Below, piece by piece: positions 38,371-63,200 of a DNA stretch of 64,000 nucleotides (positions within the stretch are counted from its first letter, which is position 1; each line of letters opens with the position of its first letter). The notes under the pieces were generated by a model. It was not told where the DNA came from, did no database searches, and worked only from the letters and a program-made list of their open reading frames with translations. Origin of the DNA: an uncultured Hormoscilla sp. (GTDB taxonomy: Bacteria; Cyanobacteriota; Cyanobacteriia; Cyanobacteriales; Desertifilaceae); assembly GCA_963921275.4 (NCBI GenBank), contig OZ001293.3, positions 2,560,001 through 2,624,000 on the forward strand, in the 5' to 3' direction. Made by a program: the position numbers and the translations under genes.

Positions 38371-40285
38371 TCACAGATTGGTATACTTAAACTTAGAGCC
38401 ACAAGCTACAGGAATCCGTCTCGCTGCCCCACGCCATAACTCCAATGCCACATCGGACAAATTTTGACCATCCGCCTGGAGCATCCGCGAGATCATGCTA
38501 ATATTGCCAAAAGACCAAAACAAGCCCGCCTCCAGCAGATACGGCTCGTTGGTTTCGGCATGCACTCTGAAGTCATACAGGGAGTAATCGCGACCGCCCA
38601 AAGCTATATGTGCCCGCTTGGCTGCATCAGAGATTTTCTCCCATAAAGAAGGCGTGACATTCCCCGGACAGACGGGTTTCACTGCTGGCTTGTCAGGTTG
38701 TTTCCTGGGCAGTCCGTCCCCTTGCAGGTCATACTTATCACGTACAGTTCTAATGGGATTGTCCTTGGTGACTAAATACTCGATCGTCGGCAGCACCCAT
38801 AACTTCCCCTCACGTTCGACTACCCCCACGCGCAGTTCCCGTCCGGGGATGTAATCTTCTACCAACAAGGTCTCGTCATGTTCAAACCCCACCCGCAATG
38901 CTTCAACTATTTGATCTTCTTCCCAAACCAAAGTCAAGCCCAAAGAATTATCTTCCGAGTTCGGCTTCACCATAAATGGGGGCTGCATGGTCACGGTATC
39001 CCCCTGGCGCACAACTTGGGCCTTGGCCACCGGGACACCAGATGCTGACACGACGCTTCTGGTTTGAGCTTTGTTAGTTGCCAGGGCAGTACAACTAGGT
39101 GGCGACCCCACTACTGGTAGCCCGAGGATGTCCTCGAAGAATCCACGGAAACTAATCATCCCTGGGACACAGAACATATGCGGCACTACTACATCCACCT
39201 CCGGTAGCCCCGCGATCGCCTCTTGGAGGGGCATCTTCTCTGATGGATGGGGTCGAGCCGGGAATCGCTTCCCGACCCTCCCTTGAGGAACCGGACTTGC
39301 GATTTTCACCGCATCCGGCTACTGGGTACTAGGCCCTTTTCATAGGTAGACTTAATAGGAATTACTTCCGTTAGCCCTTGCCGCCTGTCTTTTCTTCCCT
39401 TTCCTGGTTTAGCGAGTGGTTGTTCTGATAACCGTTAGTATCACCATTTTCAAGTCAGTTTTACCAGTTATCCATACCTTATCCTCCACTTGCGTTTCGG
39501 ATTAGTTCCGTGGCTTTTTAGGATTACTCATTCCAGCAGCTTCCTAGTATCACCGACCCACGTCAGCGCTGGCTACCCAGCATCATCTACATTACTGTAG
39601 ATGTTATCCCAGGAATTACCCCGGGCATTCGCTTCTTGGGCCATCCCTCCCCCCGTGGCTTGCGCTTAACATCTAACTTGTCCTGATGGACAGCACACGA
39701 GAGGTTACTTCGTTCCCTAACAACATTTCGCGATACCTTTAGGTCCACACTATACCCCGGGAGCTATTTGAGTACTATATTAGCCAGAGTCTAAAACTAA
39801 TACTAGCTACCATTTCCTTTTTAGGCCAGCGCATATAGCCTTATTTCGCTGGTTCCTTATAACGAGGCTTGCACATGTTTGCCTGCTCTAACCTTGGATA
39901 TCTTTCCTAGCGGCGTCACCGGCTTAGGCTGCCAGTTATCCTACATTTGAGTCCTCGCTTAGCACCACGATGATGTCGCTTCGTAGCACCGAGGACCGGT
40001 GTCACCCCCGTACCTGGGGGGAGGGGAATTTAACCCCCATGCGGTCAGAGTTCCCGGCTAATGAAACCGGGCTAGCGTTCCGTGTTTGACCACGTTAGGC
40101 TAGAACGAATCGCACAGACTGTCTAAGGATGCACCTAGCTGCCAAAGACCATCCGGGTGTACCACGGCGTAGTAGCTACTGACACCAATTGGTTGCACTA
40201 CTTCCCTTGCGTAGATTACCGACAGGTTGTAGTAGAAGTCGGATACGCGAGAACCTGCTAGGTGCAAAACTCGCAAGCAAGGCAT
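38371..40285 (-). CDS. mysD: MysD-type D-Ala-D-Ala-ligase-like ATP-grasp enzyme, copy 1 (exons 40285-40116 and 39244-38371; 347 aa if spliced)
   Basis: MPCLRVLHLAGS..DFYYNLS..YA, PHMFCVPGM, VKP..EDNSLG, YSLYDFRV, LEAGL; MAA cluster context. Confidence 0.85.
39245..40115 (-). mobile_element. ORF-less group II intron, type A copy 1 (871 nt), sense orientation in mysD
   Basis: 5' GTGCGATTCG; D5 agccggatgcggtgaaaatcgcaagtccggttc; D6 gggtcgggaagcgattcccggctcgaccccatcc; no long ORF. Confidence 0.95.
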
Positions 40286-40342
40286 TGTGTCTGATATCAT
40301 CACCAATTTTTCTGTTGTACTTGAGTTTGCTCACATATCATA

Positions 40343-40425
40343 TTAAGGGAAGATGTTTGTTTATCTTTGCTGAAAAGCATTGCCACTCCATCAACAATCA
40401 TATTAGCAGCCATGACAGGAAGCAG
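40343..40425 (-). pseudogene. vestige of the SSS symporter 3' end
   Basis: tttgtttatctttgctgaaaa...tccat.aacaatcata matches ~45783-45830. Confidence 0.65.
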
Positions 40426-40498
40426 AACCCACCTGCGGTGAAACCCTTGCCTGGCAATTATTTTTATCTGTACGCGACCAGAAAAATTTCACGCTACT

Positions 40499-41551
40499 CT
40501 AGGGTACCATACTAAATTCCATTGCCGACAGGTTAGTTTTCGTGTGAACCACCTTTTCTAGCTGAAAACCACTAGCCTTAAACAAATCCTTAAATTCTTG
40601 TTCCGTGCGCCAGTTGCCTCCCGGGTTGGCAACCATCAACTGCACTGCAAAAAGAGCTGGTATTGTCCCATCCGGACATTCTACTGGATCTCCTAAATCT
40701 GGCACTAAGGTTTGTAGAAGTAATATTTTCCCATCTTTGGGGAGAGCTTCTTTACACCGACTCAGAACTTTCAGAGCATTTTCTTTATCCCACAGGGAGA
40801 GGAAATGTTTCATGACGATCGCATCTGCCCCCTTTGGCAATTCACCAAACACATCTCCACCTACTACTTCCAATGCATCACTGGCAATTCCCTGGCTTGA
40901 CAAAAACTCCAGGGCCTTCTCTACCACGTGAGGCAGGTCAAACAATATGCCCTTGATGCCACATTTTTTGATAATCCTGGAGAGCAGTACCCCCAGACCA
41001 CCGCCAACATCCATGACTTTATTAAAGCAGCTAAAATCATATACTTCAAGTAATGAATCTGTCAGTTCTAAAGTAAAAGCCGTCAAAGCCTTATTGAACA
41101 GATCCTTCATCTCGGGGTTATCCTTAGTAAACTGGTAGACCGTCTTACCATTGACCCGTTCAAAAGGCACTTCCCCTGTGTGCAAACAATCTTCCAGTTC
41201 CTGCCATGGCTGCCACATGCTGGGGACAATAAAATGCATGCCAAAATGTCCTAGAGAAGGTCCCTCATCAGTAACCAGCAAAGCCGACATTTCCGTTTGG
41301 CCAAACACCCGTCCTGGTTTTTCCTCAAGCACTCCTAAATGAGCTAGAGCCCTGAGAATAACGTAGATAATTTCTACATTGGTAGCAGTTTTTTCAGCGA
41401 TCTTCTCCACCGGATGCGGTCCCGACTTTAACAGGTTAGGGATTCCCAATCGCGTGAGGATATAAACGCACATGCTCTGCTGGTAAGCGTAGAACATTCG
41501 GTACAGCTTCTTCTTCGACTCCATTGTGGTATCCCCTGATTTATTTTCCAT
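40499..41551 (-). CDS. SAM-dependent methyltransferase (O-/N-methyltransferase type with dimerisation domain)
   Basis: VMDVGGGLG, LFDLPHVV, GGDVF, RTEQEFKDLF. Confidence 0.9.
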   Translation of the reverse strand: MENKSGDTTMESKKKLYRMFYAYQQSMCVYILTRLGIPNLLKSGPHPVEKIAEKTATNVEIIYVILRALAHLGVLEEKPGRVFGQTEMSALLVTDEGPSLGHFGMHFIVPSMWQPWQELEDCLHTGEVPFERVNGKTVYQFTKDNPEMKDLFNKALTAFTLELTDSLLEVYDFSCFNKVMDVGGGLGVLLSRIIKKCGIKGILFDLPHVVEKALEFLSSQGIASDALEVVGGDVFGELPKGADAIVMKHFLSLWDKENALKVLSRCKEALPKDGKILLLQTLVPDLGDPVECPDGTIPALFAVQLMVANPGGNWRTEQEFKDLFKASGFQLEKVVHTKTNLSAMEFSMVP

Positions 41552-41555
41552 ATGC

Positions 41556-42506
41556 TTACACCTTGATAGCAGATTTGCTCGATAAACCCAGATACGCCCC
41601 TAGCAATATTACCACAAAACTGAGTAAGGTAGCCCCCTTGATATTTTCTGAGAAAATTGCCCAAGCTTCCAGAGCGCTGAGGACTGGAACCAGCAGATCG
41701 CATAAGGAGACAAACCCTGAAGATAATTTATTGAGGCAATAGCTGTAAAGTCCCAGACCTATAGTTTGGCAGATTAGGGCTAGACAAATTACCGAAAGCC
41801 ACCCATTAATCGAATAGGGGAAAAGTCTCTCTTCGGTGAGCATAACGATCGGCAACAGTAAGATAGAGGCGATCGCCTCAGCCCAAGTCATAATAATTAT
41901 CGAGGTCAGTTCCCTGCGCAGTTCTTCTACCAGCAGGGTGTATAAGGAAAAAAACAATGCTGATAGTAATGCTGCTAGATCGCCAATAAGTTGGCCATTG
42001 GCCTCTGAGATATCGCTGACTCCCAGGATCCCAGCCCCTGCCATTGCGATCGCCATACCGAGAATAAATCTCTTGTCAAAGCGCCTACCCCAGATCCACC
42101 AGCCCCCGAGGACGACGAATAAAGGCATCAAATAATGCATCAGAGTAGAGTTGGCGACGCTGGTTTTGGTCAGAGACCATGCCCAGAGGATGAGACCAGC
42201 AGATAAAGCAATTCCTACTGCTAGCAATAGCCCTACTATTCTCATGCTGTAGAGCTGTGGTTTTATGGTATGGTTCTGTTCGGGACGTGCAGCCAAGAGG
42301 ATATTCCATAGCCCAAAGGCGACAGTGGCCAACCAGAAGCGATTAAAGATTGTGGCATTGGCACCGAGTTCCCCTTCACCTAAGCGGATAAAAATGGGTA
42401 CAAAAGATATGGCAATCATGCCCCCGACTAATGCGGCGATCGCCCACATAGTTTCTGTGGCTAAAAGCTGTTGCTGTGGTAATTTCAGTCGCAGGCTTGT
42501 GAACAT
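41556..42506 (-). CDS. EamA/DMT family transporter
   Basis: About 10 hydrophobic helices; ISFVPIFIR, SLTKTSVANST, GDLAALLSA. Confidence 0.9.
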   Translation of the reverse strand: MFTSLRLKLPQQQLLATETMWAIAALVGGMIAISFVPIFIRLGEGELGANATIFNRFWLATVAFGLWNILLAARPEQNHTIKPQLYSMRIVGLLLAVGIALSAGLILWAWSLTKTSVANSTLMHYLMPLFVVLGGWWIWGRRFDKRFILGMAIAMAGAGILGVSDISEANGQLIGDLAALLSALFFSLYTLLVEELRRELTSIIIMTWAEAIASILLLPIVMLTEERLFPYSINGWLSVICLALICQTIGLGLYSYCLNKLSSGFVSLCDLLVPVLSALEAWAIFSENIKGATLLSFVVILLGAYLGLSSKSAIKV

Positions 42507-42637
42507 TGATTATCTCCAGTAACTTATACAGAGCTTTTGCCTATTATCTTCTCTGGTGGCAGTAAAAAGTTGGGTAATTAAATCAACTACCATCACCAGC
42601 AGTAACCATCACGATCGCCTGCTTGGATCGATCAAAA

Positions 42638-43774
42638 TTAACTATGGCTGTGGAGCAGCCAGTGTAATCCTAATTGAAAAAGATTGCTGAAGAGCACTAT
42701 CATCAACACGGTATACAGGGAGAATCTATCTTTCCCGATCGGAGAATCCTCTATCCCTGTGGGGGTAGACTGAGGCTGTCTTTGGGTGGAACTGGAGATT
42801 ACGGGTAGATCGGCTTTAGCAATTACGGAGGCTCGCTCCTCTTGCAGGCAGCAGACTTTGGTGGTGGAATAGTGAGACCAGCCCCGTTGCTCGGCTTCTT
42901 CATAGTCTTTGACTGTCAAGCTTAAATGGGGAACCTCGATGTTGCCCTGACTGGCCATAGCCAGAGCCAGCCGCAAATCTTTATGCAGCAATTTGACAGT
43001 AAAGGCAGGGCGTGCAGAGATGTCATCAAAGCGTCGTGAGAACCAATAGTTAGGCAGGCCGTGAATGTCCCCGGCGTTCTGACCAAACGAGCCGAAGTGC
43101 AGGGCATCCCAAATGGTTTGTAGCGGCAGTCCTTGGGCTAAACCCAAGGTAATTCCTTCACTCGCGGCTTGGACTGCGATCGCATTGACAGCATTGTGGA
43201 TGAGTTTGCATCGAGTTCCGCTGCTAATCTCTCCACAGTAGAGAACCCGATCGGCCATCAGTTGGAGGATGGGCTGGACTCGCTCGAAGGTTTCCTTCGA
43301 GCCGCTGGCCAGAACGGCTAAACCCATGCCCTTCTGGCTTTGGGCACCTACAGGGCAATCATTAAAGGGGGCATCTAACATCTCAACCCCTAGTTGATCC
43401 ATGGCTTGATGAAGTCTGAGTATTGTTTCTGGAGAGTTAGTGGTAATGTCTACATAGACACTGCCCGATCGCAATCCTTGAGAGAGGTTCTTTTCGCCAT
43501 CCAGCACGGCTGTTATCACGTCCGCTGGAGTAGGTAGGGCGGTAAAGATTACCTCCGCACAACTCGCAAGTTCGGCACAACTTTGGGTGATGCGGGCACC
43601 TATAGACTGCAACTGGACCATGGAATCTGGATTGATGTCATAGACATAGACCGAGTAGCCAAGGGCTAGAAAATTAGCGGCTTGTCGTCCTCCAATATTA
43701 CCGCAACCGACGATCCCAAGGGTGGGATAATTGAGGGGCGAATCAGTCTCTGAACTGTTGTTGCTTGGTGACAT
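42638..43774 (-). CDS. beta-hydroxyacid dehydrogenase family NAD(P)-dependent oxidoreductase with a C-terminal hydrophobic tail
   Basis: GIVGCGNIG, DITTNSP, LDAP, CKLIHN, HKDLRLA. Confidence 0.88.
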   Translation of the reverse strand: MSPSNNSSETDSPLNYPTLGIVGCGNIGGRQAANFLALGYSVYVYDINPDSMVQLQSIGARITQSCAELASCAEVIFTALPTPADVITAVLDGEKNLSQGLRSGSVYVDITTNSPETILRLHQAMDQLGVEMLDAPFNDCPVGAQSQKGMGLAVLASGSKETFERVQPILQLMADRVLYCGEISSGTRCKLIHNAVNAIAVQAASEGITLGLAQGLPLQTIWDALHFGSFGQNAGDIHGLPNYWFSRRFDDISARPAFTVKLLHKDLRLALAMASQGNIEVPHLSLTVKDYEEAEQRGWSHYSTTKVCCLQEERASVIAKADLPVISSSTQRQPQSTPTGIEDSPIGKDRFSLYTVLMIVLFSNLFQLGLHWLLHSHS

Positions 43775-43790
43775 ATTGAGAACTTATCAT

Positions 43791-45720
43791 TTACGTTTTC
43801 TCTGCTTTCGCAGCGTACTTAAACTTGGCACCACAAGCTACACGAGTACGCCGAAGAGCCGCCGCACTCCACAACTCCCATGCCAGATCGGACAAACTTT
43901 GGCCATCCGCCTGCAGCATCCGCGAGATCATGCCAATTTTGCTGAAAGATCCATACAAACTCGCCTCCAGCATATAGGGCTCATCTGTCTCGGCATGCAC
44001 TCGGAAGTCATACAGGGAGCATTCGCGACAGCCCAAAGCTATATGTGCCCGCTTCACTGCATCAGAGATTTTCTCCCATAAAGAAGGCGTGACCTTAGCC
44101 GGACACACTGGCTTCACTGCTGGCTTGTCAGGTTGTTTCCTCGGCAGTCCGTCCCCTTGCAGGTCATACTTATCACGTAAAGTTCTAATGGGATTGTCGG
44201 AGGTGACTAAATACTCGATCGCTGGCAGCACCCATAACTTCCCCTCACGCTCGACTACTGCCACCCGCAGTTCCCGTCCGGGGATGTAATCTTCTACCAA
44301 CAAGGTTTCGTCATGTTCAAACCCCACCCGCAATGCTTCAACTATTTGATCTTCTTCCCAAACCAAAGTCAAGCCCAAAGAATTATCTTCCGAGTTCGGC
44401 TTAACTATAAATGGGGGCTGCATGGTCACGCTATCCCCTCGGCGCACAACTTGGGCCTTGGCGATCGGGACACCATAGGCTGATACTACGCTTCTGGTTT
44501 GAGCTTTGTTAGTTGCTAGGGCCGTACAACTAGGTGGCGACCCCACTACCGGTAGCCCGAGGATGTCCTCGAAGAGCCCACGGAAACTGGTCATCCCTGG
44601 GACACAGAACATATGCGGCACTACTACATCCACCTCCGGTAGCCCCGCGATCGCCTCTTGGAGGGGCATCTTCTCTGATGGATGGGGTCGAGCCGGGAAT
44701 CGCTTCCCGACCCTCCCTTGAGGAACCGGACTTGCGATTTTCACCGCATCCGGCTACTGGGTACTAGGCCCTTTTCATAGGTAGACTTAATAGGAATTAC
44801 TTCCGTTAGCCCTTGCCGCCTGTCTTTTCTTCCCTTTCCTGGTTTAGCGAGTGGTTGTTCTGATAACCGTTAGTATCACCATTTTCAAGTCAGTTTTACC
44901 AGTTATCCATACCTTATCCTCCACTTGCGTTTCGGATTAGTTCCGTGGCTTTTTAGGATTACTCATTCCAGCAGCTTCCTAGTATCACCGACCCACGTCA
45001 GCGCTGGCTACCCAGCATCATCTACATTACTGTAGATGTTATCCCAGGAATTACCCCGGGCATTCGCTTCTTGGGCCATCCCTCCCCCCGTGGCTTGCGC
45101 TTAACATCTAACTTGTCCTGATGGACAGCACACGAGAGGTTACTTCGTTCCCTAACAACATTTCGCGATACCTTTAGGTCCACACTATACCCCGGGAGCT
45201 ATTTGAGTACTATATTAGCCAGAGTCTAAAACTAATACTAGCTACCATTTCCTTTTTAGGCCAGCGCATATAGCCTTATTTCGCTGGTTCCTTATAACGA
45301 GGCTTGCACATGTTTGCCTGCTCTAACCTTGGATATCTTTCCTAGCGGCGTCACCGGCTTAGGCTGCCAGTTATCCTACATTTGAGTCCTCGCTTAGCAC
45401 CACGATGATGTCGCTTCGTAGCACCGAGGACCGGTGTCACCCCCGTACCTGGGGGGAGGGGAATTTAACCCCCATGCGGTCAGAGTTCCCGGCTAATGAA
45501 ACCGGGCTAGCGTTCCGTGTTTGACCACGTTAGGCTAGAACGAATCGCACAGACTATCTAAGGATGTGCCTAGCTGCCAAAGGCCATCGGGGTGTACCAC
45601 GGCGTAGTAGCTACTGACACCAACTGGTTGCACTACTTCCCTTGCGTAGATTACCGACAGGTTGTAGTAGAAGTCGGATACGCGAGAACCTGCTAGGTGC
45701 AAAACTCGCAAGCAAGGCAT
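43791..45720 (-). CDS. mysD: MysD-type ATP-grasp ligase, copy 2 (exons 45720-45551 and 44679-43791; 352 aa if spliced)
   Basis: Close paralogue of copy 1, with the intron at the same position. Confidence 0.85.
44680..45550 (-). mobile_element. ORF-less group II intron, type A copy 2 (871 nt), sense orientation in mysD
   Basis: Sequence appears identical to 39245-40115. Confidence 0.95.
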
Positions 45721-45771
45721 TGTTTCTGATATCATCCCCAATCTACTGTTGTACTTAATTTTTCTCAAATG

Positions 45772-47193
45772 TTAGGAATATTTTTGTTTATCTTTGCTGA
45801 AAAACTGAGCAATTCCATAAACAATCATACCTGTAGTCATTCCCGGAAGCACTTCGTACAGTATACCAGACAAGTTTAGTCCTAATTTCCATGTCAAAGC
45901 TGCCCCTATGCCCGCCACCATCATGGCGATCACCACTGGTGCCGTTACAGGTTTTTGCCAAACCCGGACTAGCAATAGCGGACCGAGACCAGAAGCTAGG
46001 GCTGACCAAGCAAAAATTACCAATGCGAATACATTATCATCTCCTGCCAACGCCATACTCAAAATTATCATTGTTACCGTCAGGGTTCCCAGTTTTGCCC
46101 ACTTGTAAGACTGGGCAATTTGAGGAAACAAATCCTGGGTTAGAGCTGCCGAACTTGACAGGATCTGAGAGTCAGCCGTAGATATCGTCGCAGCAAACAG
46201 TCCCGCTAGCATCAATCCTACCAAGATCGCTGGCAACAATTCTAGGGATAAATAGGGCAGTGCTAACTCCGGATCCCCATTAGACATTAATTCTGGTAGC
46301 ATCACTCTCGCTGTTAGTCCTACACCTATTGCACAAAAAGATGCCATCAGACCGCAGATTATTTTGATGTTGCGAGCTTTAGCTATACTATCGGCAGAGT
46401 CGATCGCCATACCTCGCACCAGGATATGAGGTTGACCTACCACCCCAAACCCTGCTGCTATCCAACCGATGAAAAAAGGCAACAGTCCTAACTGAAGGTT
46501 TTGCGGACTTAAGGAAACCAGTGCCGGGTCTATCTCGCCCAGTTTTCTCCATATTTGGACTACGCCACCGCTGCCAGCAACTGCAACTACCAGCAGCAGC
46601 AGCAAGGAACCGATCATCACCACTGATTGCGCTGCATCCGTCCAGATGGAGGCGCGGATACCTCCAGAAAAACAATAGATGACCACAATGACCGCCCCTA
46701 CTATTATACCCAAGTTGTAGTTCCACCCGAACACCGCATTTAGTGCCTTGCTACCTGCCACCAGTTGTGCTGCCGCATAGGTTCCCATCAAGGTAATAAT
46801 AATTAAAGCTGAGACCTTTGTAATCGGGCGAAACCCCTTTGTTTCTTGACCGAGTAAGGATGAGACTGTCTCGGAAGCAGTTAACTCCGATATTTGCCTT
46901 AACCGTTTGAAAACCAACCACCAAGCAATATAATCTCCTATAGCCCAGCCGATTGTCAACCATAGGGCCGAAATTCCTGCCTGGTAAGCGAAGCCTACCT
47001 CCCCGATAAACAAAAAGCCGCTTTGACCTGATGCCTGAGCCGATAGGGCCGTCAGCCAGGGATTGACATTTCTGCTAGCCAGCAGGTAATCACTCGTCGT
47101 ATTTTGCTTGCGGGTCGCAGAATATATTCCTACCATAGTAAATAATAGCAGAAAGGCGATGAATGTCACTGCGATCCCAAATTTATTATCCAT
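45772..47193 (-). CDS. Na+/proline-type symporter (SSS/PutP-like)
   Basis: DYLLASR, SGGIRASIWTD, GQPHILVR, AATISTADSQIL. Confidence 0.92.
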   Translation of the reverse strand: MDNKFGIAVTFIAFLLLFTMVGIYSATRKQNTTSDYLLASRNVNPWLTALSAQASGQSGFLFIGEVGFAYQAGISALWLTIGWAIGDYIAWWLVFKRLRQISELTASETVSSLLGQETKGFRPITKVSALIIITLMGTYAAAQLVAGSKALNAVFGWNYNLGIIVGAVIVVIYCFSGGIRASIWTDAAQSVVMIGSLLLLLVVAVAGSGGVVQIWRKLGEIDPALVSLSPQNLQLGLLPFFIGWIAAGFGVVGQPHILVRGMAIDSADSIAKARNIKIICGLMASFCAIGVGLTARVMLPELMSNGDPELALPYLSLELLPAILVGLMLAGLFAATISTADSQILSSSAALTQDLFPQIAQSYKWAKLGTLTVTMIILSMALAGDDNVFALVIFAWSALASGLGPLLLVRVWQKPVTAPVVIAMMVAGIGAALTWKLGLNLSGILYEVLPGMTTGMIVYGIAQFFSKDKQKYS

Positions 47194-47279
47194 TGTCAGT
47201 TTGTAGGGTGGGCATTGCCCACCAAGTTAGATGGCACTGACTTAAGGTTGGTGGGCGGTGCCCACCAACCTTCTGCGCC

Positions 47280-48493
47280 CTAGTCTCCGCCCAATTCTAC
47301 TAGCTTACCTATATTAAAATCAATCTTCACCCAACCTTTCAATTTTCTCATATTATTCAGCAGGAGTAATGGTATTTGCCAGTGGTGGACCATCAAAAAC
47401 GGCAAGGGGTCATTCACCTGGAAGATCCCATCCGTTCCCTTGATTATCTTATTAAACCACCCCTTGAGTTGCCCCCAAGATCTAATTCCCGTCAGTCGCC
47501 AGAGTTCGTGATATGTCCAATAGGTAGGTTTACTCTCAGGAAGTGGCTCAATGGGCGGTTTCCGATCGTCCTTGCTATCCTGAATATATGCATCCGCGAC
47601 CCCAGGATGATTGTAAAACATGGTGATTGCCGTGTGGGTGCGCGGGTTACATTCTACTGGATAAACTTTCCCATCTTTCGTCTGAATAACATCTAAAGAA
47701 ATTTGTCCTGTCAGGTTTAATGCCTTGACAAACTGCTGCACCCATTGGAAAATATCCTGGTTATCCACTTGCTCGTAATTTACCTGAAAGGGAGAAGACC
47801 GCGAACAGCATGCAGTCTGACGATCCCCTTCCTGACCGTACTGTGGGTACAATATTCTTGTCCGCGAATAAATTCCTGCATGATCCAAGGTTGGGACTCG
47901 CTGATGGGCAATCCCTTGACAAAACTTGCCATTTCCTCTAGGCTACTCATGGGCAGTTTCGTCAGATCCAAGCGGTAAACTGAGTTATAGGCGATACTCT
48001 TAATAATGTACTGACTGCCATCGGCGGTAAAGTCAAAGTTCAGCACTTGTTCGGGGTCTGTAATCAAAAATGCTTTTGGCGCAGTTAAACCAAACTCCCT
48101 CGCCTTTTGACAAAATGTAAACTTGTTATCTAACATCTCGGTAATCTCAGCATCAAAGGTTAACGCCTCGCAGTGAGGTGATAACAATGATTTCGCGATC
48201 GAGTCGTAGTAACTGGCAACGGGACTGGATACGGGAATAAAGACATCAATCTTTTCCTGCTTGACAATATCCAATAATCCCTGACAATAGCTGTTCGGGT
48301 CAATTTCGGGTGCTGGCACGGTGAAAAATCCCTTGACCGCCCGAGAAAAGCGATGTCCTGATAACCAGTATTTATGAGTTTCTACCAGAAACACTGTATG
48401 TCCGGCTGCGTGAAAGCAACGGGCCAGTTGCAGCGCTTTTGTCATCTTACCACCCGTAATCAAGATATTTTTGGGATTTGCCGCAACCACCTT
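47280..48493 (-). pseudogene. mysC: MysC ATP-grasp (mycosporine-glycine synthase), lacking its N-terminus and frameshifted near 47810
   Basis: ILITGGKMTKALQLAR, ETHKYWLSGHRFS, ECNPRTH, IDFNIGKLVELGGD. Confidence 0.92.
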
Positions 48494-49113
48494 TTTCTTA
48501 TCGGCATCGATAAACACCAAGTCAAAGGACTCCGAAGCATTTGCCAATTGGCGCAGGGTCTCTAAAGCCGGTGCTACCTTGACAGTAATTTTACTTCCGT
48601 GGGGGGACTCTTGGAAACAGTTTTGGCAAAGTTAGCCACATATTCATCCACCTCACAGGCAACCAGGAGTCCATCTTCTGGCAGGGCCTCTGCCATGGCC
48701 AGGGCCGAATATCCGGTGAACATGCCGATTTCCAAGATCCGTTTTGCCCCCGTCATGTGGACAAACATCTTCAGAGTTTGTCCCTCGACATGTCCCGAAA
48801 GCATCTCCTGTTCTAACTGTCGCACTAGCTCCCCATCTGAGAACCTTTTGCTCCAATCTTCTGAGGCCGTTTTGAGTGCCAATGCTGTCAAGGCGGGGGA
48901 CTCGGCAGTACTGCACTTATTCAGATAAGGTTCTATTCCTGCTGCCAGATCGTAGGCTTTTTGAACAGCAGCGGCCAGTTCTGCTGGCACCTTGGCGTCA
49001 GAGAGCATCTGCACTGCGCTGGCCAGATCTTCTACCAAGATACCCAAGGGGGTGACAGGTCTGGCTGTCTTTTCTTTCACAACCGTCGCGATCGTCATGC
49101 ACTCTTCTCCCAA
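48494..49113 (-). pseudogene. mysB: MysB O-methyltransferase, frameshifted near 48620 and C-terminally deleted
   Basis: TARPVTPLGIL, LEQEMLSGHVEGQTLKM, LEIGMFTGYSAL, FDLVFIDADK. Confidence 0.92.
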
Positions 49114-53224: not shown

Positions 53225-53903
53225 TATCTTTCTCTCTTTTTATTTGACACAACTGCCCGGTTCTGCCGCTTTTCGACGAACAGTGCGGCAGATTTTTGGC
53301 ATGCTTAATGGGCGATCTTCATCGCCTGAAGTAGTTGCTTTTCTGCCTCCTGTCATCCTTAGCTCATCTGACAGGGTTGACATAGCACTACCTCACGATC
53401 TACTCTCGAAGAGCGATCGCCTCAAACTTGTCTAAGTGTATCCGTCAATACACTTCCGTTGCTCGGTCTTTCTCCTGTAAGTTCTCTGTGCGAGCAACCG
53501 AGTTCTGGATACTCCTATATAGGTGTTTTACCTCTCAATATTGCTGTTGTGACTGAAAACAACTCGTCATTGTTCATCTTTGAGAGCTTCCACAACAGTA
53601 AATAGCCAGCATTTATATTTCGATCGGGGGTTAAACCTTTTTCTTTGCCAGGAACGAGCATGTCTTTCCTCTCTTTACTTTTCACCGGTTCTTGGTTTTG
53701 TTTAATCGTTATCATCCCGCATTTGGCGAGCCTTGAGCTGTCCCTATGGCAGGTCACCGTTCTCTCTCTTGTCAACCACCATTCGATCCCTCTGTATTCT
53801 TCCTACTTCTACTATAGCATATCTTGCTGCCGTTATCTACTCATCTCCAGAGAGCTCTGATTTTTTCCCTCTAGTACCTTTGGTCAGAACCCTTATCTAG
53901 TTT

Positions 53904-54774
53904 GTGCGATTCGTTCTAGCCTAACGTGGTCAAACACGGAACTCTAGCCCGGTTTCATTAGCCGGGAACTCTGACCGCATGGGGGTTAAATTCCCCTCCC
54001 CCCAGGTACGGGGGTGACACCGGTCCTCGGTGCTACGAAGCGACATCATCGTGGTGCTAAGCGAGGACTCAAATGTAGGATAACTGGCAGCCTAAGCCGG
54101 TGACGCCGCTAGGAAAGATATCCAAGGTTAGAGCAGGCAAACATGTGCAAGCCTCGTTATAAGGAACCAGCGAAATAAGGCTATATGCGCTGGCCTAAAA
54201 AGGAAATGGTAGCTAGTATTAGTTTTAGACTCTGGCTAATATAGTACTCAAATAGCTCCCGGGGTATAGTGTGGACCTAAAGGTATCGCGAAATGTTGTT
54301 AGGGAACGAAGTAACCTCTCGTGTGCTGTCCATCAGGACAAGTTAGATGTTAAGCGCAAGCCACGGGGGGAGGGATGGCCCAAGAAGCGAATGCCCGGGG
54401 TAATTCCTGGGATAACATCTACAGTAATGTAGATGATGCTGGGTAGCCAGCGCTGACGTGGGTCGGTGATACTAGGAAGCTGCTGGAATGAGTAATCCTA
54501 AAAAGCCACGGAACTAATCCGAAACGCAAGTGGAGGATAAGGTATGGATAACTGGTAAAACTGACTTGAAAATGGTGATACTAACGGTTATCAGAACAAC
54601 CACTCGCTAAACCAGGAAAGGGAAGAAAAGACAGGCGGCAAGGGCTAACGGAAGTAATTCCTATTAAGTCTACCTATGAAAAGGGCCTAGTACCCAGTAG
54701 CCGGATGCGGTGAAAATCGCAAGTCCGGTTCCTCAAGGGAGGGTCGGGAAGCGATTCCCGGCTCGACCCCATCC
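53904..54774 (+). mobile_element. ORF-less group II intron, type A copy 3 (871 nt), intergenic
   Basis: Same sequence as the other copies (one substitution seen near 53943); EBS2 ATAAGG at 54175-54180, EBS1 AGACTC at 54227-54232. Confidence 0.95.
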
Positions 54775-54869
54775 AGCACATCTGCCTCGATTTTTAGCTT
54801 ACCTCATCTACTTTCATTTTACCACCTATTAGGCCGCACAGATCCTCACCTCAGTCAGTTTATTAAGCT

Positions 54870-56019
54870 ATCACATAAGCTTGGATAATGCAAGGGTATA
54901 TCTCCCCTGTTTACAACATTCCTTACTCTGCCGATCGCCGCCGGCGTGCGCGCAGCGCAATCCCGAGCCTATCAGCAAGAGGTTGGCGCAGCATCTACCG
55001 TAAACTAGGGTGTGTCATCAATCAAATTGCTTGACAGAAGTAGATGGATACGGTATGGAGTCCTTATCCAGCAATAACAATCAAGAGGGCATGATATGAG
55101 ACGCTATGGCTTGCGAGACGACCAGTGGGAACGGATCGAACACCTTTTACCTGGTAAAGAGGGTGACCCAGGCGCTACAGCCAAGAACAATAGATTATTC
55201 GTGTTCTGCCGTGTTATATCGATATCGTGCTGGCATTCCCTGGCGGGATTTACCGGAGTGTTTTGGGGATTTTCGGGTTGTTCATACCCGCCATACCCGT
55301 TGGTCTGAAAAGGGAGTTTGGAAGCAGGTATTCGATGTCTTGGCCTCAGACGCCGATAACGAATACGCCGCGATTGATGCCACCATCCTGCGTGCCCATC
55401 AACGAGCGTGCGGGTGCAAAAAAAAACACCCTCAGATACGTGCGAAACCCAAGCCATAGGCCGTAGTAAAGGGGGACTATCGACAAAGATTCATGCCACT
55501 TGCGATTGCCCAAGGCAATCCCACAGGATTTCATCTTACCCCTGGCCAAGCCCACGACGGGAAAGGCGCTGACGTGCTATTGGATAAAATCGGTGAGATT
55601 GGCGCGCTGCTTGCAGATAAAGCCTATGATGCGGAACAACGTGTGCTCGAGCGCCTGAAAGAGGCGGATTGGATGGCTGTCATTCCTCCAAAAAGTAACC
55701 GCACAGAACACAGAGAAGACGATGAAGAAATGTACAAGTGGCGGCATCTAATTGAAAATCTATTCCAAAAACTCAAGCAATACAGGGCTCTGGCGACACG
55801 CTACGATAAAACGGCTCGCAATTTCTTGGGTGCCATCTACCTCGCGGCAGCTGTAATATGGCTTAATTGATGACACGCCCTAATCAATTTATCACATAAG
55901 CTTGGATAATGCAAGGGTAGATCTCCCCTGTTTAAAACCTTCCCTACTCCGCCGATTGCCGCCGGCGTGCGCGCAGCGCAATCCCGATACTGTCAGCAAG
56001 GGGTTGCCGCAGCATCTAC
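54870..56019 (+). repeat. two diverged ~130-bp direct repeats (54870-54998, 55891-56019) separated by IS5
   Basis: atcacataagcttggataatgcaagggta...gcagcatctac occurs on both sides of the IS. Confidence 0.85.
55008..55880 (+). mobile_element. IS5-family element, copy 2 (873 bp)
   Basis: Same translations as 33280-34152; TA duplication. Confidence 0.95.
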
Positions 56020-56483
56020 AGACCCTTTACTAACACTGGAACTATTGATTCCTACTAACTTGATGATGTATACTATTATTTTTTGCCTTTTCCTCCTCAT
56101 CGTCCCGTTATTGTGCAACGCCTGCAAATCTAAGATGCACCCTTGTTCTCTGACTCTGGCATGTCCTCAAAGCGGCAGCTTTGCCAACGGGCGATCGCCT
56201 CTCGTGATTAAAAGTATCTTACAGGTTTAAGGATATAGCTCTTTTTTGCCTGGAAGCGGTTCTTGTAGTGATTCTTGGGTTTGGTCTTTGACTCAAGCTA
56301 GGGTCGCTAACTATGATATACTGCACAATGACAAGCTACAGGCTACAAGCTACAGGCTATGCTAATTTTTGCTACATTAGGAGGATGATTATTCTTGCAT
56401 CATCGCTTTTGGTGAATGGCGAATGGTCCAAACCTGTCAGAATGGCGAATGGGACAATTATCAATTAACAATTGCTCAATTCT

Positions 56484-57578
56484 ATGAATCAATCTCCTAT
56501 TGGTGTGGCCGTCGTCGGCACGGGATTCGGTCAAAGAGTCCATATACCCGGATTACAAGCTCATCATCGCACTGAGGTGGTGGCAGTTTATCATCGGGAT
56601 ATAGACAAAGCAAGCTCGATCGCGTCTGCTCACAATATCCCCTACTCTGCTGACACCCTGACAGATATCGTCTCTATACCGGAAGTTGCCGCTGTCAGCA
56701 TCTGTACACCGCCATTCCTCCATTACGAGATGGCAAAGATCGTCCTGGAAGCAGGCAAACATCTGTTACTGGAAAAACCCACCACTCTCTCGGCACAGGA
56801 GGCGAAATCACTATACCATCTCGCACAAGCAAAAGGCGTAGTGGCGGCGATGGACTTTGAATTTCGCTTCGTACCGGCATGGCAGCGGTTCGGTGAAATG
56901 TTAACAGAGGGTTATGTGGGAAACAAGCGTTTGGTGAAAATTGAGTGCCTGGTTGCCAGTCGTGCGGATGGGAATCGCCCTTGGAACTGGTATGCTCAGA
57001 AAGAGAAAGGCGGTGGGATGCTGGGGGCTATGGGTTCCCATGTGTTTGATTACATCCGCTGGTTATTTGGGGATATTCAGCGACTGTCGGCCCGGTTGAT
57101 TACGGGCATTCCCCACAGACCTGACCCGAATGATGGTAAACTCAAACCTGTAGATGCTGATGATACCTGTCTGTTGATGCTGGAATTGGCAGATGGTACG
57201 CCAGTTCAGGTTTGTCTTAGTTCCGTCACCTATCAAGGCAAGGGACATTGGGTAGAAGTGTATGGCGATCGGGGTACGATGGTCCTAGGCAGCAGCAACC
57301 TGAAAGACTACGTACATGGTTTTCAGCTGCTGGCAGCACCGGCGGGGGAGTCTCTCCAGGAAGTAGAAATTCCCCAAGGTCTAGAATTTCCCCAAACCTA
57401 CAGCGACGGACGCATTGCCCCCTTTATTCGGGTAGTAGACGCCTGGGTAGAAAGCATCTCACAGGGAGTTCCCATGACTCCTTCGTTGCGGGAAGGGGTG
57501 TATTCTCAGCTGTTGATGGATTTAATCCATCAATCTCATGCTACTAACAGTTGGGTAGTAGTCCCAGACTTCTTGTAG
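56484..57578 (+). CDS. Gfo/Idh/MocA oxidoreductase
   Basis: VVGTGFG, GKHLLLEKP, GGGMLGAMGSH. Confidence 0.92.
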   Translation: MNQSPIGVAVVGTGFGQRVHIPGLQAHHRTEVVAVYHRDIDKASSIASAHNIPYSADTLTDIVSIPEVAAVSICTPPFLHYEMAKIVLEAGKHLLLEKPTTLSAQEAKSLYHLAQAKGVVAAMDFEFRFVPAWQRFGEMLTEGYVGNKRLVKIECLVASRADGNRPWNWYAQKEKGGGMLGAMGSHVFDYIRWLFGDIQRLSARLITGIPHRPDPNDGKLKPVDADDTCLLMLELADGTPVQVCLSSVTYQGKGHWVEVYGDRGTMVLGSSNLKDYVHGFQLLAAPAGESLQEVEIPQGLEFPQTYSDGRIAPFIRVVDAWVESISQGVPMTPSLREGVYSQLLMDLIHQSHATNSWVVVPDFL

Positions 57579-57639
57579 GGAAGGAGAGAGGCGATCGGGT
57601 TGTTAATTTGTCAAGTTTTATTAATGGACCGATAATGCT

Positions 57640-57742
57640 GTAGTGAAAGACTAAAGTCTTTCACTACGAAGCCTGAAAGACTTTAGTCCTTACTACGAAG
57701 CTTGAAAGACTAAAGTATTTACTACGAAGCTTGAAAGACTAA
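57640..57742. repeat. short palindromic tandem repeats between convergent genes
   Basis: gaaagactaaagtctt.cactacgaagc units x3-4. Confidence 0.8.
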
Positions 57743-57748
57743 TAACTG

Positions 57749-58378
57749 TCAGATTTCGTTCCTTTTTGCTAAAGCATTCACAGCCGCTGCGGCGATCGCA
57801 CTTCCTCCCCGTCGTCCATGGAGGGTGATAAAAGGAACTCCTCGGCTATTAGCTGCCAGTTCGGCTTTCGATTCGGCGGCACCCACAAACCCAACGGGAA
57901 AGCCCAAAATCAAGGCAGGTTTGGCGATTCTGGAATCCAGCAGTTCCAGTAAGTGAAAAAGTGCTGTTGGTGCATTGCCAATTGCGACTACAGCACCATA
58001 CAAATGGGATTTCCAGAATTCTATAGCTGCCGCCGATCGCGTATTTTGTATTTGTCGGGCCATTTCTAGCACTTCTGGATATTTGAGAGTGCAAATCACT
58101 TCATTATTCGCACTTAACCGATCGCGGATAATCCCATTTGCTACCATTTGAGAATCACAAAGAATTGGCGCACCCTTGGTTAAGGCGGCGCGTCCCGCTG
58201 CGACTGCATCGGGTGAAGCGGCTAAATCTTCTATAATATCTGTCATGCCGCAGGCGTGAATCAGCCTTACTGCTACAGGGGCTAAATCGGCAGATAAATT
58301 TTCTAGTTTCGCTTCCGCACGGATAATAGCAAAGGATTTAAGGGTTATGTCATCGCCATTGCGAATATAATCAATCAT
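57749..58378 (-). CDS. cobH: precorrin-8X methylmutase
   Basis: SFAIIRAE, RLIHACG, TRSAAA, IGNAPTAL, PVGFVGAAESK, GRRGGS. Confidence 0.96.
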   Translation of the reverse strand: MIDYIRNGDDITLKSFAIIRAEAKLENLSADLAPVAVRLIHACGMTDIIEDLAASPDAVAAGRAALTKGAPILCDSQMVANGIIRDRLSANNEVICTLKYPEVLEMARQIQNTRSAAAIEFWKSHLYGAVVAIGNAPTALFHLLELLDSRIAKPALILGFPVGFVGAAESKAELAANSRGVPFITLHGRRGGSAIAAAAVNALAKRNEI

Positions 58379-58429
58379 GGTTCAATTGTGAATTGAGAAT
58401 TGCTTTTTGAGATAAAGAAAAAGAGAAAG

Positions 58430-59641
58430 ATGCACAAGTGGCTGTCGATTGTGGGTATTGGCGAAGAGGGATTGCTAGGGGTTAACCCGGTAGGGCGATC
58501 GCTGATTGACCAAGCAGAGGTCTTAATTGGTGGAGAACGTCACTTAGCCATGCTACCCTCAGAGGATATACGGGAAAAACTCCTCTGGACTTCTCCTATT
58601 GCAGATTCGGTGCAGGAAATCATCCGTCGTCGCGGGCAAGCTGTCTGTGTTCTGGCCAGTGGGGATCCAATGTGCTATGGTATTGGAGTCACCCTCACCC
58701 GCCGCATCGCGATCGCCGAAATGACGATCGTGCCGTCTCCCTCAGTCTTCAGTCTAGCCTGTAGTCGTTTGGGTTGGTCCTTAACGGATGTGGAAACCTT
58801 GAGTTTGTGCGGTCGTGACCCGGCTTTATTGAATGGGGTTGTTTATCCAGAGGCGAGATTATTACTGTTGAGTGCCGACGGACGGACCTCTGCAACAGTG
58901 GCTAAACTCTTGACTTCCAAAGGATTTGGTGATAGTAAAATGGTGGTTTTAGAACGGATGGGCGGCCCCAAGGAACGATCAATCTCCGACATTGCTTCAT
59001 CCTGGAATGCCACAGATATAGCTGACTTGAATGCGATCGCGATTACCTGCATTTCCTGTAATCCCTTAATCCCCGCATCTCGCGTTCCCGGACTCCCCGA
59101 TACTGCTTACCACCATGACGGACAGTTGACAAAACGGGAAGTTCGTGCAATGACTCTGTCGGCCCTGGCACCCTCACCAGGACAACTGTTGTGGGATGTG
59201 GGGGCAGGTTGTGGTTCTATTGGGATTGAATGGATGCGGTGCGATCGCCGCTGTCAAGCTGTGACGATCGAACGGCATCCCACGCGCTTACAATATATAG
59301 CAGATAATGCGATCGGCCTCGGAACGCCGGATCTGAAAATCATCCCAGGATCTGCCCCAGAGGCGTTAACAGATTTACCGGAACCAGATGCTATTTTCAT
59401 CGGTGGAGGATTAACTGTTCCAGGGCTATTGGAAACCTGTTGGCAGGCCCTGCCTGTGGTCGGCAGGTTGGTGGCCAATGCTGTCACGGTAGAAGGGGAA
59501 CAAAAACTGTTTGAGTACCAAGGTAAGTGGGGCGGTGAATTAACTCGAATTGCCATCCAACGGGCCGAACCAGTGGGCAAATTCATGGGTTGGAAGACAA
59601 TGGCCCCGGTAACGCAGTGGGTTGTAGTTAAGGGTTGTTAG
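58430..59641 (+). CDS. cobL: precorrin-6Y C5,15-methyltransferase (CbiE/CbiT fusion)
   Basis: IVGIG, LASGDPMCYGIG, GQLTKREVR, WDVGAGCGS, PDAIFIGGG. Confidence 0.95.
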   Translation: MHKWLSIVGIGEEGLLGVNPVGRSLIDQAEVLIGGERHLAMLPSEDIREKLLWTSPIADSVQEIIRRRGQAVCVLASGDPMCYGIGVTLTRRIAIAEMTIVPSPSVFSLACSRLGWSLTDVETLSLCGRDPALLNGVVYPEARLLLLSADGRTSATVAKLLTSKGFGDSKMVVLERMGGPKERSISDIASSWNATDIADLNAIAITCISCNPLIPASRVPGLPDTAYHHDGQLTKREVRAMTLSALAPSPGQLLWDVGAGCGSIGIEWMRCDRRCQAVTIERHPTRLQYIADNAIGLGTPDLKIIPGSAPEALTDLPEPDAIFIGGGLTVPGLLETCWQALPVVGRLVANAVTVEGEQKLFEYQGKWGGELTRIAIQRAEPVGKFMGWKTMAPVTQWVVVKGC

Positions 59642-59922
59642 TTGTTAGTTGTTAGTTGTTAGTTGTTAGTTGTCAGCATTATCCCTTGATAAGTCCTGAC
59701 CAGGGTTTTAACCCACCATATGGGCCAGTCATACCATCAGGCATGTCTATTATCAACGGGAGCATCTCACTTTTTTATTTGCGAATGGGAAATAGCTAAT
59801 TGCGTATACTAAGTGCGCGCAGCGCTATGGAAAATGGCTAATGGACATAAATAAATAAATCTACCTTTCTCAATTCTCAATTCTCAAACTTGAAGGGAAC
59901 ATTACTCAGACAACAATCTAGC

Positions 59923-59975
59923 GCTACGGGCTACGCCGATTGCTGAGCAGAGATCGGCGTAGCCCGCAGTTTTTG
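59923..59975 (+). terminator. GC-rich hairpin followed by a T run
   Basis: cgggctacgccgat-loop-atcggcgtagcccg then cagttttt. Confidence 0.6.
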
Positions 59976-60275
59976 ACTCTTGCTGGTGAGGCAGTTCAGC
60001 TACCAATTCTATGGTCCCGTCCGGATGTATGACTCAACCCGTTGCTTCCACAAAGCATACCTGATCACGGGAAATAAGGAATTAGGGAAAAGAATCAGAC
60101 TCAGAACCTCTCGACGCATTCCTGTCTACAATGGTTCTTTACCCTGCACTTTACTGAAGTACGAATTATATTGATAAAGTGAGTATTGATAACATGAGAG
60201 GATCATAGAGTGAATCCCTTCAGGGATTTGGTAAAGTAGCCCGCAATTTATTCGCGGGCTAGATTTAGATTAGAT

Positions 60276-63200
60276 CTACACGAAGACGAAATTATCTGCT
60301 GTGAGAGCCGTAGCAGTGGATGGGGTCGAGCCGGGAATCGCTTCCCGACCCTCCCTTGAGGAACCGGACTTGCGATTTTCACCGCATCCGGCTACTGGGT
60401 ACTAGGCCCTTTTCATAGGTAGACTTAATAGGAATTACTTCCGTTAGCCCTTGCCGCCTGTCTTTTCTTCCCTTTCCTGGTTTAGCGAGTGGTTGTTCTG
60501 ATAACCGTTAGTATCACCATTTTCAAGTCAGTTTTACCAGTTATCCATACCTTATCCTCCACTTGCGTTTCGGATTAGTTCCGTGGCTTTTTAGGATTAC
60601 TCATTCCAGCAGCTTCCTAGTATCACCGACCCACGTCAGCGCTGGCTACCCAGCATCATCTACATTACTGTAGATGTTATCCCAGGAATTACCCCGGGCA
60701 TTCGCTTCTTGGGCCATCCCTCCCCCCGTGGCTTGCGCTTAACATCTAACTTGTCCTGATGGACAGCACACGAGAGGTTACTTCGTTCCCTAACAACATT
60801 TCGCGATACCTTTAGGTCCACACTATACCCCGGGAGCTATTTGAGTACTATATTAGCCAGAGTCTAAAACTAATACTAGCTACCATTTCCTTTTTAGGCC
60901 AGCGCATATAGCCTTATTTCGCTGGTTCCTTATAACGAGGCTTGCACATGTTTGCCTGCTCTAACCTTGGATATCTTTCCTAGCGGCGTCACCGGCTTAG
61001 GCTGCCAGTTATCCTACATTTGAGTCCTCGCTTAGCACCACGATGATGTCGCTTCGTAGCACCGAGGACCGGTGTCACCCCCGTACCTGGGGGGAGGGGA
61101 ATTTAACCCCCATGCGGTCAGAGTTCCCGGCTAATGAAACCGGGCTAGCGTTCCGTGTTTGACCACGTTAGGCTAGAACGAATCGCACAACCCCAATAAG
61201 GGTTAGAGAGTCATCATCATCGAAAGTGATGACTGTATTAGATCCATTTTGGGTAGTTGCCCCTAAAACCGCTGTTAAATCAGGGAATCAAAAAGCGCTA
61301 ACGTCAATAGCATCCTCAGAGATGTCGAAGTCGGTAATAGCATCCGCACTACCACTATCGGTAGCGACGAAAGTATCTGCTGCTGCTCCCAGACTCACCG
61401 TAACGGCTGTACCGGAGTTTTGGGTGAAACTGTCACTCCCACCTCCAAGTAAAACATCACCGTTGAGAGTACCATTATTGACAACATTGATGCTACCAAG
61501 AGAGCCACTAGCATGAATAGCAGCGTTCCCGTTACCACCTGTAATAGTACCCCCAGCTTCGTTGGTGATGGTGCCGTTAAACGCTACACCTGCCTGAATG
61601 AGGATACCAGCACTTTCCTCAGAAGCAATGGTACCGGAGTTAGTGATGGAACCTGTTACCGTAGCTCCTGCTGTACCGCTGAAGAAGCGAATCCCAGCGG
61701 GAACATTATCAGCACCCCGCCCTCGAATTGAACCCTGGTTTGAGATGACAATATTCTCAGAAGTTGCATCCTCATCAACTTCGCCAATTTCAGCTGAGAT
61801 CCCGCTACCGGAATTCCCGGCTCCTGCATCGATAGTACCACTACTATTGATAGTAATGCCATCTGCTGTGCCATCTAAGTAAATAGTACCATTGCGCTGA
61901 TCTCCTGTTTTCAGAATCTGCCCGGTGTTAATTAGGGTGACGCCATTACCGTCCAAGTTCACTGCACGACTGTCGGAGGATATGGTTCCTGCATTTAATA
62001 TGGTCAAATCATGGTCAGCATTACCAATATAAAGACTATTATTTGGTCCTTCAATCTCACCACTGTTGGTGATCGTGCCATCGAAAGCCACTCCATCTTC
62101 TACCAAAATCCCGCCCACAGTGCCAGTTTCTGCTTCGGTTGAGATGATATTGAAGTTGGTAATATAAGCTGTTACAGTGGCTTCTCCTTCAGCAGCAGTC
62201 AAACCGCTGAAGAAGCGGATCCCAGCGGGAACATTATCAGCACCCCGCCCTCGAATTGAACCCCGGTTTGAGATGACAATATTCTCAGAAGTTGCATCCT
62301 CATCAACTTCGCCAATTTCAGCTGAGATCCCGCTACCGGAATTCCCTGCTCCTGCATCGATGGTACCACTACTATTGATAGTAATGCCATCTGCTGTGCC
62401 ATCTAGGTAAATATTACCATTGCGCTGATCCCCCGTTCCCAGAATCTGCCCACTGTTATTCAGGGTGACATTATCCCCGTCCAAGTTGACTGCACGACTG
62501 TCGGAGGATATGGTTCCTGCATTTAATATGGTCAAATCATGGTCAGCATTAACAATATAAAGACCATTATTTGGTCCTTCAATCTCGCCACCATATCTGT
62601 TAGCGATCGTGCCATCGAAAGCCACTCCATCTTCTACCAAAATCCTGCCCACAGTGCCAGTTTCTGCTTCGGTTGAGATGATATTGAAGTTGGTAATATA
62701 AGCTGTTACAGTGGCTTCTCCTTCAGCAGCAGTCAAACCGCTGAAGAAGCGGATCCCAGCGGGAACATTATCAGCACCCCGCCCTCGAATTGAACCCCGG
62801 TTTGAGATGACAATATTCTCAGAAGTTGCATCCTCATCAACTTCGCCAATTTCAGCTGAGATCCCGCTACCGGAATTCCCTGCTCCTGCATCGATGGTAC
62901 CACTACTATTGATAGTAATGCCATCTGCTGTGCCATCTAGGTAAATAGTACCATTGCGCTGATCTCCTGTTCCCAGAATCTGCCCACTGTTATTCAGGGT
63001 GACATTATCCCCGTCCAAGTTGACTGCACGGCTATCTGAAGATATCTCCCCTGAATTTTTAATCCTGAGATTGTGGCGAGCATTACCAACGTAAATACCA
63101 TTGATATCTCCTTCAATCTCACCCCACAAACGGTTGTTGATAATACCATTGAAAGCGACCCCATCTTGAACCACAATTGCACCGCCAGCGTCTATCTCAG

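Follow-up and report, generated by a model that had tools for sequence, protein, structure and literature searches.

A compact 871-nt element present in near-identical copies in a Hormoscilla chromosome is probably an open reading frame-less group II intron mobilized in trans

Group II introns lacking an open reading frame (ORF) are rare in bacteria, and they nearly always reside together with related introns that encode a reverse transcriptase (RT; PMC4424553). In Thermosynechococcus elongatus, families of ORF-less introns are mobilized by the "driver" intron-encoded proteins (IEPs) of related introns, as was shown experimentally (PMC2882425). Here, a stretch of 64,000 nt from an uncultured Hormoscilla sp. 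(contig OZ001293.3, positions 2,560,001 to 2,624,000; the whole stretch is referred to as the window) was analyzed, which carries four copies of an 871-nt element (c1–c4) and a diverged fifth one (c5; Table 1). With good confidence, the element is considered a compact ORF-less group II intron of IIB-like anatomy, belonging to a multi-copy family within the chromosome of a single filamentous cyanobacterium. This degree of confidence applies to the reading as a whole, i.e., a family of ribozymes, which is spliced, and which spread through the RT/maturase of another intron. By analogy, the family fits the pattern of bacterial ORF-less introns co-residing with RT-encoding relatives; the RT partner itself is one that we infer.

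Like the TeI3 introns of T. elongatus BP-1 (PMC2882425), those in the window are compact ORF-less derivatives in a cyanobacterial host and occur as sets of identical copies (family F3 of T. elongatus consists of seven identical introns). In both systems, copies are found in genes as well as in intergenic DNA, and both contain subfamilies whose exon-binding sites (EBS) differ and match their own insertion sites, with good pairing between EBS and intron-binding sites (IBS) at most insertions. The likeness is one of description: host lineage, target genes, and termini differ, and no twintron arrangement is present in the window. Furthermore, whereas the T. elongatus introns retain recognizable remnants of their ORF ends, and their drivers were identified and tested (PMC2882425), no such remnant is detectable here.

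Among plasmids, blastn detected just two matches, one in Nostoc and one in Acaryochloris, both of them distant and partial. An intron on plasmid pn1 of Nostoc sp. UHCC 0926 (L003:3291 to ~5727) is identical to the window copies in its first 12 nt (GTGCGATTCGTT), ~70% identical over 155 nt of domain 1 (D1), and 86% identical over D5, which indicates that they belong to the same broad ribozyme lineage. Unlike the window copies, it encodes a 575-aa protein with RVT_N, RVT_1, GIIM, and HNH domains, and the remainder of its ribozyme is too diverged for blastn. When genome contigs were scanned with a 24-nt D1 pattern, at least one locus, L001, was among the matches listed. It lies in the metagenome-assembled genome of Hormoscilla sp. 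GM7CHS1pb (L001:2808-3740), has the same architecture at ~78% identity, is also ORF-less, and its helices covary with those of the window copies. Like c4, it follows a same-strand gene, at a distance of 127 nt. It differs by its length (933 nt), its longer D4, its target, and its 3′ exon, which starts with T and is accompanied by an A at the candidate EBS3 column.

Miniature inverted-repeat transposable elements are derivatives of DNA transposons with terminal inverted repeats and target duplications, the enzyme for which is made elsewhere. An earlier note, made from the sequence of the window alone, had likened the behavior of the 871-nt copies to that of such elements. As an analogy this is apt, since the copies are short, non-autonomous, and numerous, but they end in GTGCG... 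and ...CATCC without terminal inverted repeats, no target duplication accompanies them, and their insertion appears to be guided by RNA–DNA pairing.

Copies, boundaries, and predicted fold of the element

Alignment of the four intervals together with 50-nt flanks revealed that identity begins exactly at GTGCG and that each copy comprises 871 nt. Three of them (c1, c2, and c4) are the same in sequence, and c3 deviates by a single change (G>T at intron position 40). The positions and strands that the earlier note had assigned to these four copies were therefore correct, but c5, which was found by repeat scan and blastn, had been overlooked. It is ~84% identical to the main copies over D1 and carries deletions in D3 and D4. 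The 5′ start GTGCG, which satisfies the GUGYG rule, is common to c1–c5 and L001. The presence of D5 and D6, also claimed previously, was borne out by the Rfam model Intron_gpII (RF00029), which scored 44.4 bits in each of c1–c4 (gathering score, 40) and had no other match in the window at the gathering threshold. For c5, the score was 27.2 bits, i.e., below the gathering score, and the loop of its D5 is UCCA, not GNRA. The longest stop-to-stop frame within a copy corresponds to 58 aa, and D4 contains no ORF for an RT/maturase, as an autonomous element would. With two cyanobacterial intron RTs as tblastn queries, no similarity was found in the introns, in the window, or in L001. Target-site duplications are not visible in the flanks of the four copies either, again as the earlier note had stated. 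The GC content of the introns is 50–53%, compared with 47.7% for the window. The palindrome GCGATCGC, which we take to be cyanobacterial HIP1, occurs 54 times in the window (0.84 per kb) and not once inside the five intron copies.

Perfect identity of three copies could also result if, during assembly or polishing, one repeat consensus had been copied to several places. Such an artefact is extremely improbable: the flanks of each copy are unique, and removal of the copies restores ORFs exactly (see below). In addition, variants do exist, namely, the single change in c3 and one-residue exchanges in intron-derived peptides from elsewhere in the genome (Q>K in P0244 and P>S in P0242), and an independent assembly contains a related element as well (L001).

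Table 1. Intron copies, interrupted genes, and intron substructures. Positions are those of the window; where "nt" is given, numbering is that of intron c1. D2, D3, D5, and D6 are also resolved in the consensus fold.
Feature	Position	Strand	Description
c1	39245..40115	-	871-nt ORF-less group II intron (probable), sense, inside mysD-1
c2	44680..45550	-	Identical to c1; homologous site of the paralogue mysD-2, sense
c3	53904..54774	+	Intergenic, between mysA (DHQ-synthase-like) and an insertion sequence (IS)
c4	60318..61188	-	Identical to c1; intergenic, 99 nt 3′ of the stop of a same-strand 804-aa ORF
c5	35446..36238	+	Diverged 793-nt ORF-less subfamily member; antisense in symporter gene SSF-2
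mysD-1	38371..40300	-	D-Ala-D-Ala-ligase-like; exon 1 40116-40300, exon 2 38371-39244
mysD-2	43791..45735	-	Exon 1 45551-45735, exon 2 43791-44679
SSF-2	35014..37240	-	Sodium:solute symporter paralogue; split by c5 into 36239-37240 and 35014-35445
EBS1 of c1	39787..39792	-	nt 324-329, AGACUC; loop positions 3-8 of a covarying hairpin
EBS2 of c1	39855..39860	-	nt 256-261, AUAAGG; unpaired internal stretch of D1
IBS1 and IBS2	40116..40128	-	IBS1 CAGTCT, 1-nt spacer, IBS2 CCTTAG; 5′ exon of mysD-1
D1 of c1	nt 2-410
D4 of c1	nt 562-792		231 nt
D5 of c1	39289..39320	-	AGC triad, 2-nt bulge, GAAA loop
D6 of c1	39250..39282	-	Bulged GA; candidate branch A at 39253 (A863)

Exact removal of the 871 nt in silico restores both paralogous mysD genes, with removal of c1 resulting in a coding sequence of 352 codons for mysD-1. 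Among five 3′ offsets tested, only the boundary ...CATCC|A joined the mysD frame. The alternatives (the ...CAT suggested by the Rfam alignment, at offset −2, as well as ±1, ±2, and ±3) were ruled out by the reading frame together with the alignment of homologues. Compared with ±3, the chosen boundary alone yields SLDSL-SEKMPLQ, residue for residue as in 11 uninterrupted homologues. Restoration of the ORF thus fixes the 3′ boundary and places the end of the intron at ...CAUCC, 2 nt past the end of the Rfam model alignment; the junction of the ligated mysD exons is predicted to read ...GACAGTCT|ATCAGAG.... In 118 of 120 mysD homologues, the site is spanned in one colinear alignment, i.e., they are uninterrupted, the two exceptions being the window's own fragment and P0010. 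The latter stems from a 1200-nt contig of Okeania sp. SIO2H7, on which the mysD homologue begins four residues after the intron junction, and could represent another interrupted mysD or just the end of the contig. The literature library queried contained neither an earlier report of introns in mysD nor a paper on group II introns in Hormoscilla. Removal of c5 from SSF-2 likewise results in a stop-free ORF (477 aa), which is colinear with the intact paralogue. Because c5 lies antisense to this gene, it is not removable from the mRNA by splicing, and it must have entered DNA, not mRNA. For the intergenic c3, the longest ORF across the in silico junction is 38 aa.

The consensus structure of c1, c5, and L001 calculated with RNAalifold consists of six domains with 217 pairs, and 95.8% of the cells in these pairs are paired. 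In 51 pairs, both sides have changed, compared with 2–6 when partners were slid and 19.9 ± 3.5 in shuffled alignments (none of 500 shuffles reached 51), figures which apply to only three sequences, the same from which the structure was derived. The 3′ terminus is CC in the main copies and L001, and AU in c5. J2/3 covaries with it, reading AGGGAU in introns that end in C and AAAGAU in the one that ends in U; this represents a single event, and is consistent with a γ–γ′ pair and with the unusual termini. The candidate EBS3 (U at nt 364; alignment column 369) reads U, U, and A in the main copies, c5, and L001, respectively, and is complementary to the first position of the 3′ exon (A, A, and T). 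This complementarity, also a single covariation event, favors EBS3 pairing of the IIB type. A δ–δ′ pairing of the IIA type was rejected because all three sequences have a U directly 5′ of EBS1, so that such a pair fails in L001.

Target sites and recency of insertion

The 5′ flanks quoted in the earlier note, as well as the A following every 3′ end, are exact, and the pairing proposed between these flanks and the intron motifs ATAAGG (EBS2) and AGACTC (EBS1) exceeds chance. At the four main sites, 10, 10, 11, and 11 of the 12 positions pair. Across both strands of the window, only 80 of 127,972 positions reach at least 10 pairs, four of which are the occupied sites; an A comes next at 13 of the unoccupied positions with at least 10 pairs. 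Of the three ATAAGG motifs of the intron (nt 256, 272, and 634), only that at nt 256 lies within an unpaired stretch that is variable between the subfamilies. EBS1 is AGACUC in the main copies, AUUUUC in c5, and UGCACA in L001, where it matches the element's own flank, TGTGCA. The corresponding pairing with the own flank involves 5/6 (main), 6/6 (c5), and 6/6 (L001) positions, compared with only 0–5 with foreign flanks. EBS2, the partner of which comprises positions −13 to −8, is AUAAGG, AAGCUA, and ACUGUA, respectively, and pairs at 5–6 (main), 3 (c5), and 5 (L001) of six positions. Since all four main sites obey the ordinary IBS2–N–IBS1 arrangement plus the pairing at +1, target choice is ordinary, and the "relaxed target rules" suggested previously are not supported. 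Taken together, these comparisons support that the elements entered EBS-matched sites precisely and recently.

The four main copies differ by 0–1 nt in 871 while residing at three unrelated sites. After removal of the introns, the coding sequences of mysD-1 and mysD-2 differ at 88 of 1056 nt (dS 0.21; dN/dS 0.26), compared with 0 of 871 for the introns they contain; the low dN/dS indicates that both paralogues have been under selection since their duplication. The gene interrupted by c5, SSF-2, has remained free of stop codons apart from the disruption. Both the 0–1 differences and the still open SSF-2 frame argue for very recent activity.

One could also envisage introns that are only spliced and are immobile, with copies arising from segmental duplication and gene conversion, not from retromobility. 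In line with this, c1 and c2 reside in paralogous genes within a rearranged duplication, the mysD paralogues share an identical 3′ exon over its first 62 nt, and introns without IEP usually lose mobility, according to reviews (PMC4424553). The exons upstream of the two introns, on the other hand, already differ at positions −5, −17, and −18, so that a conversion tract would need to end precisely where the intron begins; independent homing into both paralogous sites fits these differences better than a conversion tract does. Moreover, the flanks of c3, of c4, and of the insertions behind proteins P0241–P0245 (see below) are unrelated, and a matching IBS motif is present at every site examined. 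Immobility is, consequently, very unlikely.

Copies beyond the window and the genomic surroundings

The last 66 nt of the intron encode, in one frame with a GTG start, the peptide MKIASPVPQGRVGKRFPARPHP, and gene callers therefore extend ORFs of the 3′ exon into the intron. When a collection of 5.8 billion proteins was searched with the intron peptide and the c3 flank, six proteins were recovered from seven candidates, all of them encoded on the same 6,879,066-bp contig. Each has MKIASPVPQGRVGKRFPARPHP at its N-terminus, from which P0242 and P0244 deviate by one residue, and thereafter they are unrelated: mysD-1, part of an MscS-like channel, a TPR protein (P0242), a protein of unknown family, a Uma2-family protein, and a haloperoxidase/RTX-like protein. 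The C-terminus of P0242 is GWGRAGNRFPTLP, the antisense translation of the intron's 3′ end, which indicates an inverted copy and, thus, a TPR protein bracketed by one sense and one inverted copy. The family is not confined to the window, as at least five further sense insertions and one inverted copy lie on the same contig. Together with the four in the window, this amounts to at least 10 copies of the main type in the genome, plus c5. This number is a lower bound because the peptide search detects only one of three phases and only sense insertions into genes; the fragment of mysD-2 itself is absent from the protein collection. A phmmer search of 1.84 billion representatives, for which the intron's 3′ end was translated in antisense to give the query peptide, produced four weak matches (47–70% identity) and no family member. 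Three of the matches resemble spurious ORFs that overlie D5/D6 of other introns, and the fourth is a repeat protein. The shared 3′ end also accounts for the annotation of mysD, and of at least five more genes, as truncated proteins with a spurious common N-terminus.

Extrapolated to the whole genome, the density in the window (five per 64 kb) would correspond to ~540 copies, five times the highest number of group II introns reported, 101 (PMC8919778). A local hotspot is more likely than such a density genome-wide; it would combine a duplicated homing site with a decaying, IS-rich region. Arthrospira and Trichodesmium contain tens to ~100 group II introns, mostly chloroplast-like (PMC8919778), but those counts are dominated by introns typed via the encoded protein, whereas the number for Hormoscilla sp. 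is the lower bound of at least 10 main-type copies.

The mysD genes interrupted by c1 and c2 belong to a cluster for mycosporine-like amino acids, which also carries a DHQ-synthase-like gene, O-methyltransferase genes, and an ATP-grasp gene. In the region 47200-49113 (minus strand), the frame of a mysB-like O-methyltransferase breaks after ~179 aa and, following a frame change, continues straight into the N-terminus of the mysC-like ATP-grasp gene. The latter is in turn divided by a frameshift (47780-48547 and 47280-47888). The cluster looks partly decayed; sequencing error is an alternative explanation for the breaks in frame. A paralogue of an EamA-family transporter (37350-38252, minus strand) contains several in-frame stops and is ~59% identical to the intact copy at 41556-42506; it is probably a pseudogene. 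Two copies of an 886-bp IS (33269-34154 and 54997-55882) are 99.5% identical, have terminal inverted repeats, and each carry DUF4096 and DDE_Tnp_1 in two ORFs. Direct repeats of 137 nt (54862-54998 and 55883-56019; 90% identity) border the second copy. The 804-aa ORF just upstream of c4 (61288-63702, minus strand) has no Pfam match and contains repeats of ~528–534 nt with 93–99% identity. Further tandem repeats are present at 11545-12234, 14313-15017, 16233-16904, and 63528-63647; these regions comprise 138-nt units in a TPR gene, a 405-nt duplication, ~104-nt units, and 40-nt units.

A trans-acting partner and its implications

Under the mechanism favored here, the element would be transcribed within the RNA of its host and fold into six domains, in which EBS1 (nt 324-329), EBS2 (nt 256-261), and probably U at nt 364 (EBS3) would hold IBS1, IBS2, and the A at +1. 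It would be excised by splicing, presumably as a lariat formed at A863, and both mysD genes could still be expressed. With the help of an RT/maturase from another intron of the genome, the excised RNA would reverse-splice into DNA containing the same IBS motifs and would then be copied, the outcome being precise, duplication-free, and near-identical insertions. Both splicing in vivo, as judged from the sequence, and an RT/maturase encoded elsewhere in the genome and acting in trans, are what we infer.

Several observations weigh against this proposal. No RT/maturase was found within the 64-kb window by tblastn with two cyanobacterial intron RTs, and when the protein collection was searched with the RT of the Nostoc intron (L003), the best 120 of 8000 matches all belonged to other genomes, a result that is silent on presence or absence in the source genome. 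Neither was a remnant of an IEP detected in D4 by tblastn with two heterologous RTs (best E 0.039–2), which is a weak test. With regard to the ribozyme, the Rfam class models for D1–D4, which the earlier note had suggested to be run, reached at best 22 bits (group-II-D1D4-2; E 0.045) compared with a gathering score of 36; the candidate bulged branch A is located 9 nt from the 3′ end, where 7–8 nt is usual; and the 3′ terminus is CC instead of the usual AY, with the alignment of the Rfam model stopping 2 nt short. Finally, the identity of c1 and c2, taken alone, can also be explained by gene conversion.

The lack of an RT in the 64 kb that carry five copies, of an ORF remnant in D4, and of a source-genome protein among the best 120 of 8000 matches to the Nostoc RT, as well as the D5 of c5 without GNRA loop, would also suit an orphan family. 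In that case, no cognate IEP would be left in the genome, and the copies would be stranded relics of a past burst or would have been moved by a non-cognate RT. This is unlikely: the search with the Nostoc RT was blind to the source genome and, hence, does not establish the absence of an RT; the copies differ by 0–1 nt and the SSF-2 ORF is still open, both pointing to very recent activity; and in the bacterial cases known, related RT-encoding introns are present in the same genome (PMC4424553). It is quite unlikely, too, that no cognate IEP is left and that spread, past or ongoing, proceeded via a non-cognate or free-standing RT/maturase, on which production of the sunscreen would then hang. 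If true, the identical introns in both mysD genes would make synthesis of the mycosporine-like amino acid sunscreen dependent on a single trans-acting splicing factor, i.e., a switch at the level of the host, built from a selfish element.

In the favored case, that of a family spliced and spread through the RT/maturase of another intron, the biology is not new, because ORF-less families driven in trans were already demonstrated in T. elongatus (PMC2882425). Still, few natural systems show ORF-less introns multiplying. The one described here offers at least 10 sites with near-identical copies, EBS that were retargeted in two or more subfamilies of a single genome and in a third subfamily from a relative, sense (splice-dependent) as well as antisense (gene-killing) insertions, and an unusual CC 3′ terminus. 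It could, thus, be used to examine how many degenerate introns are serviced by one splicing and mobility factor that they share, a scenario from which spliceosomal introns have been proposed to originate.

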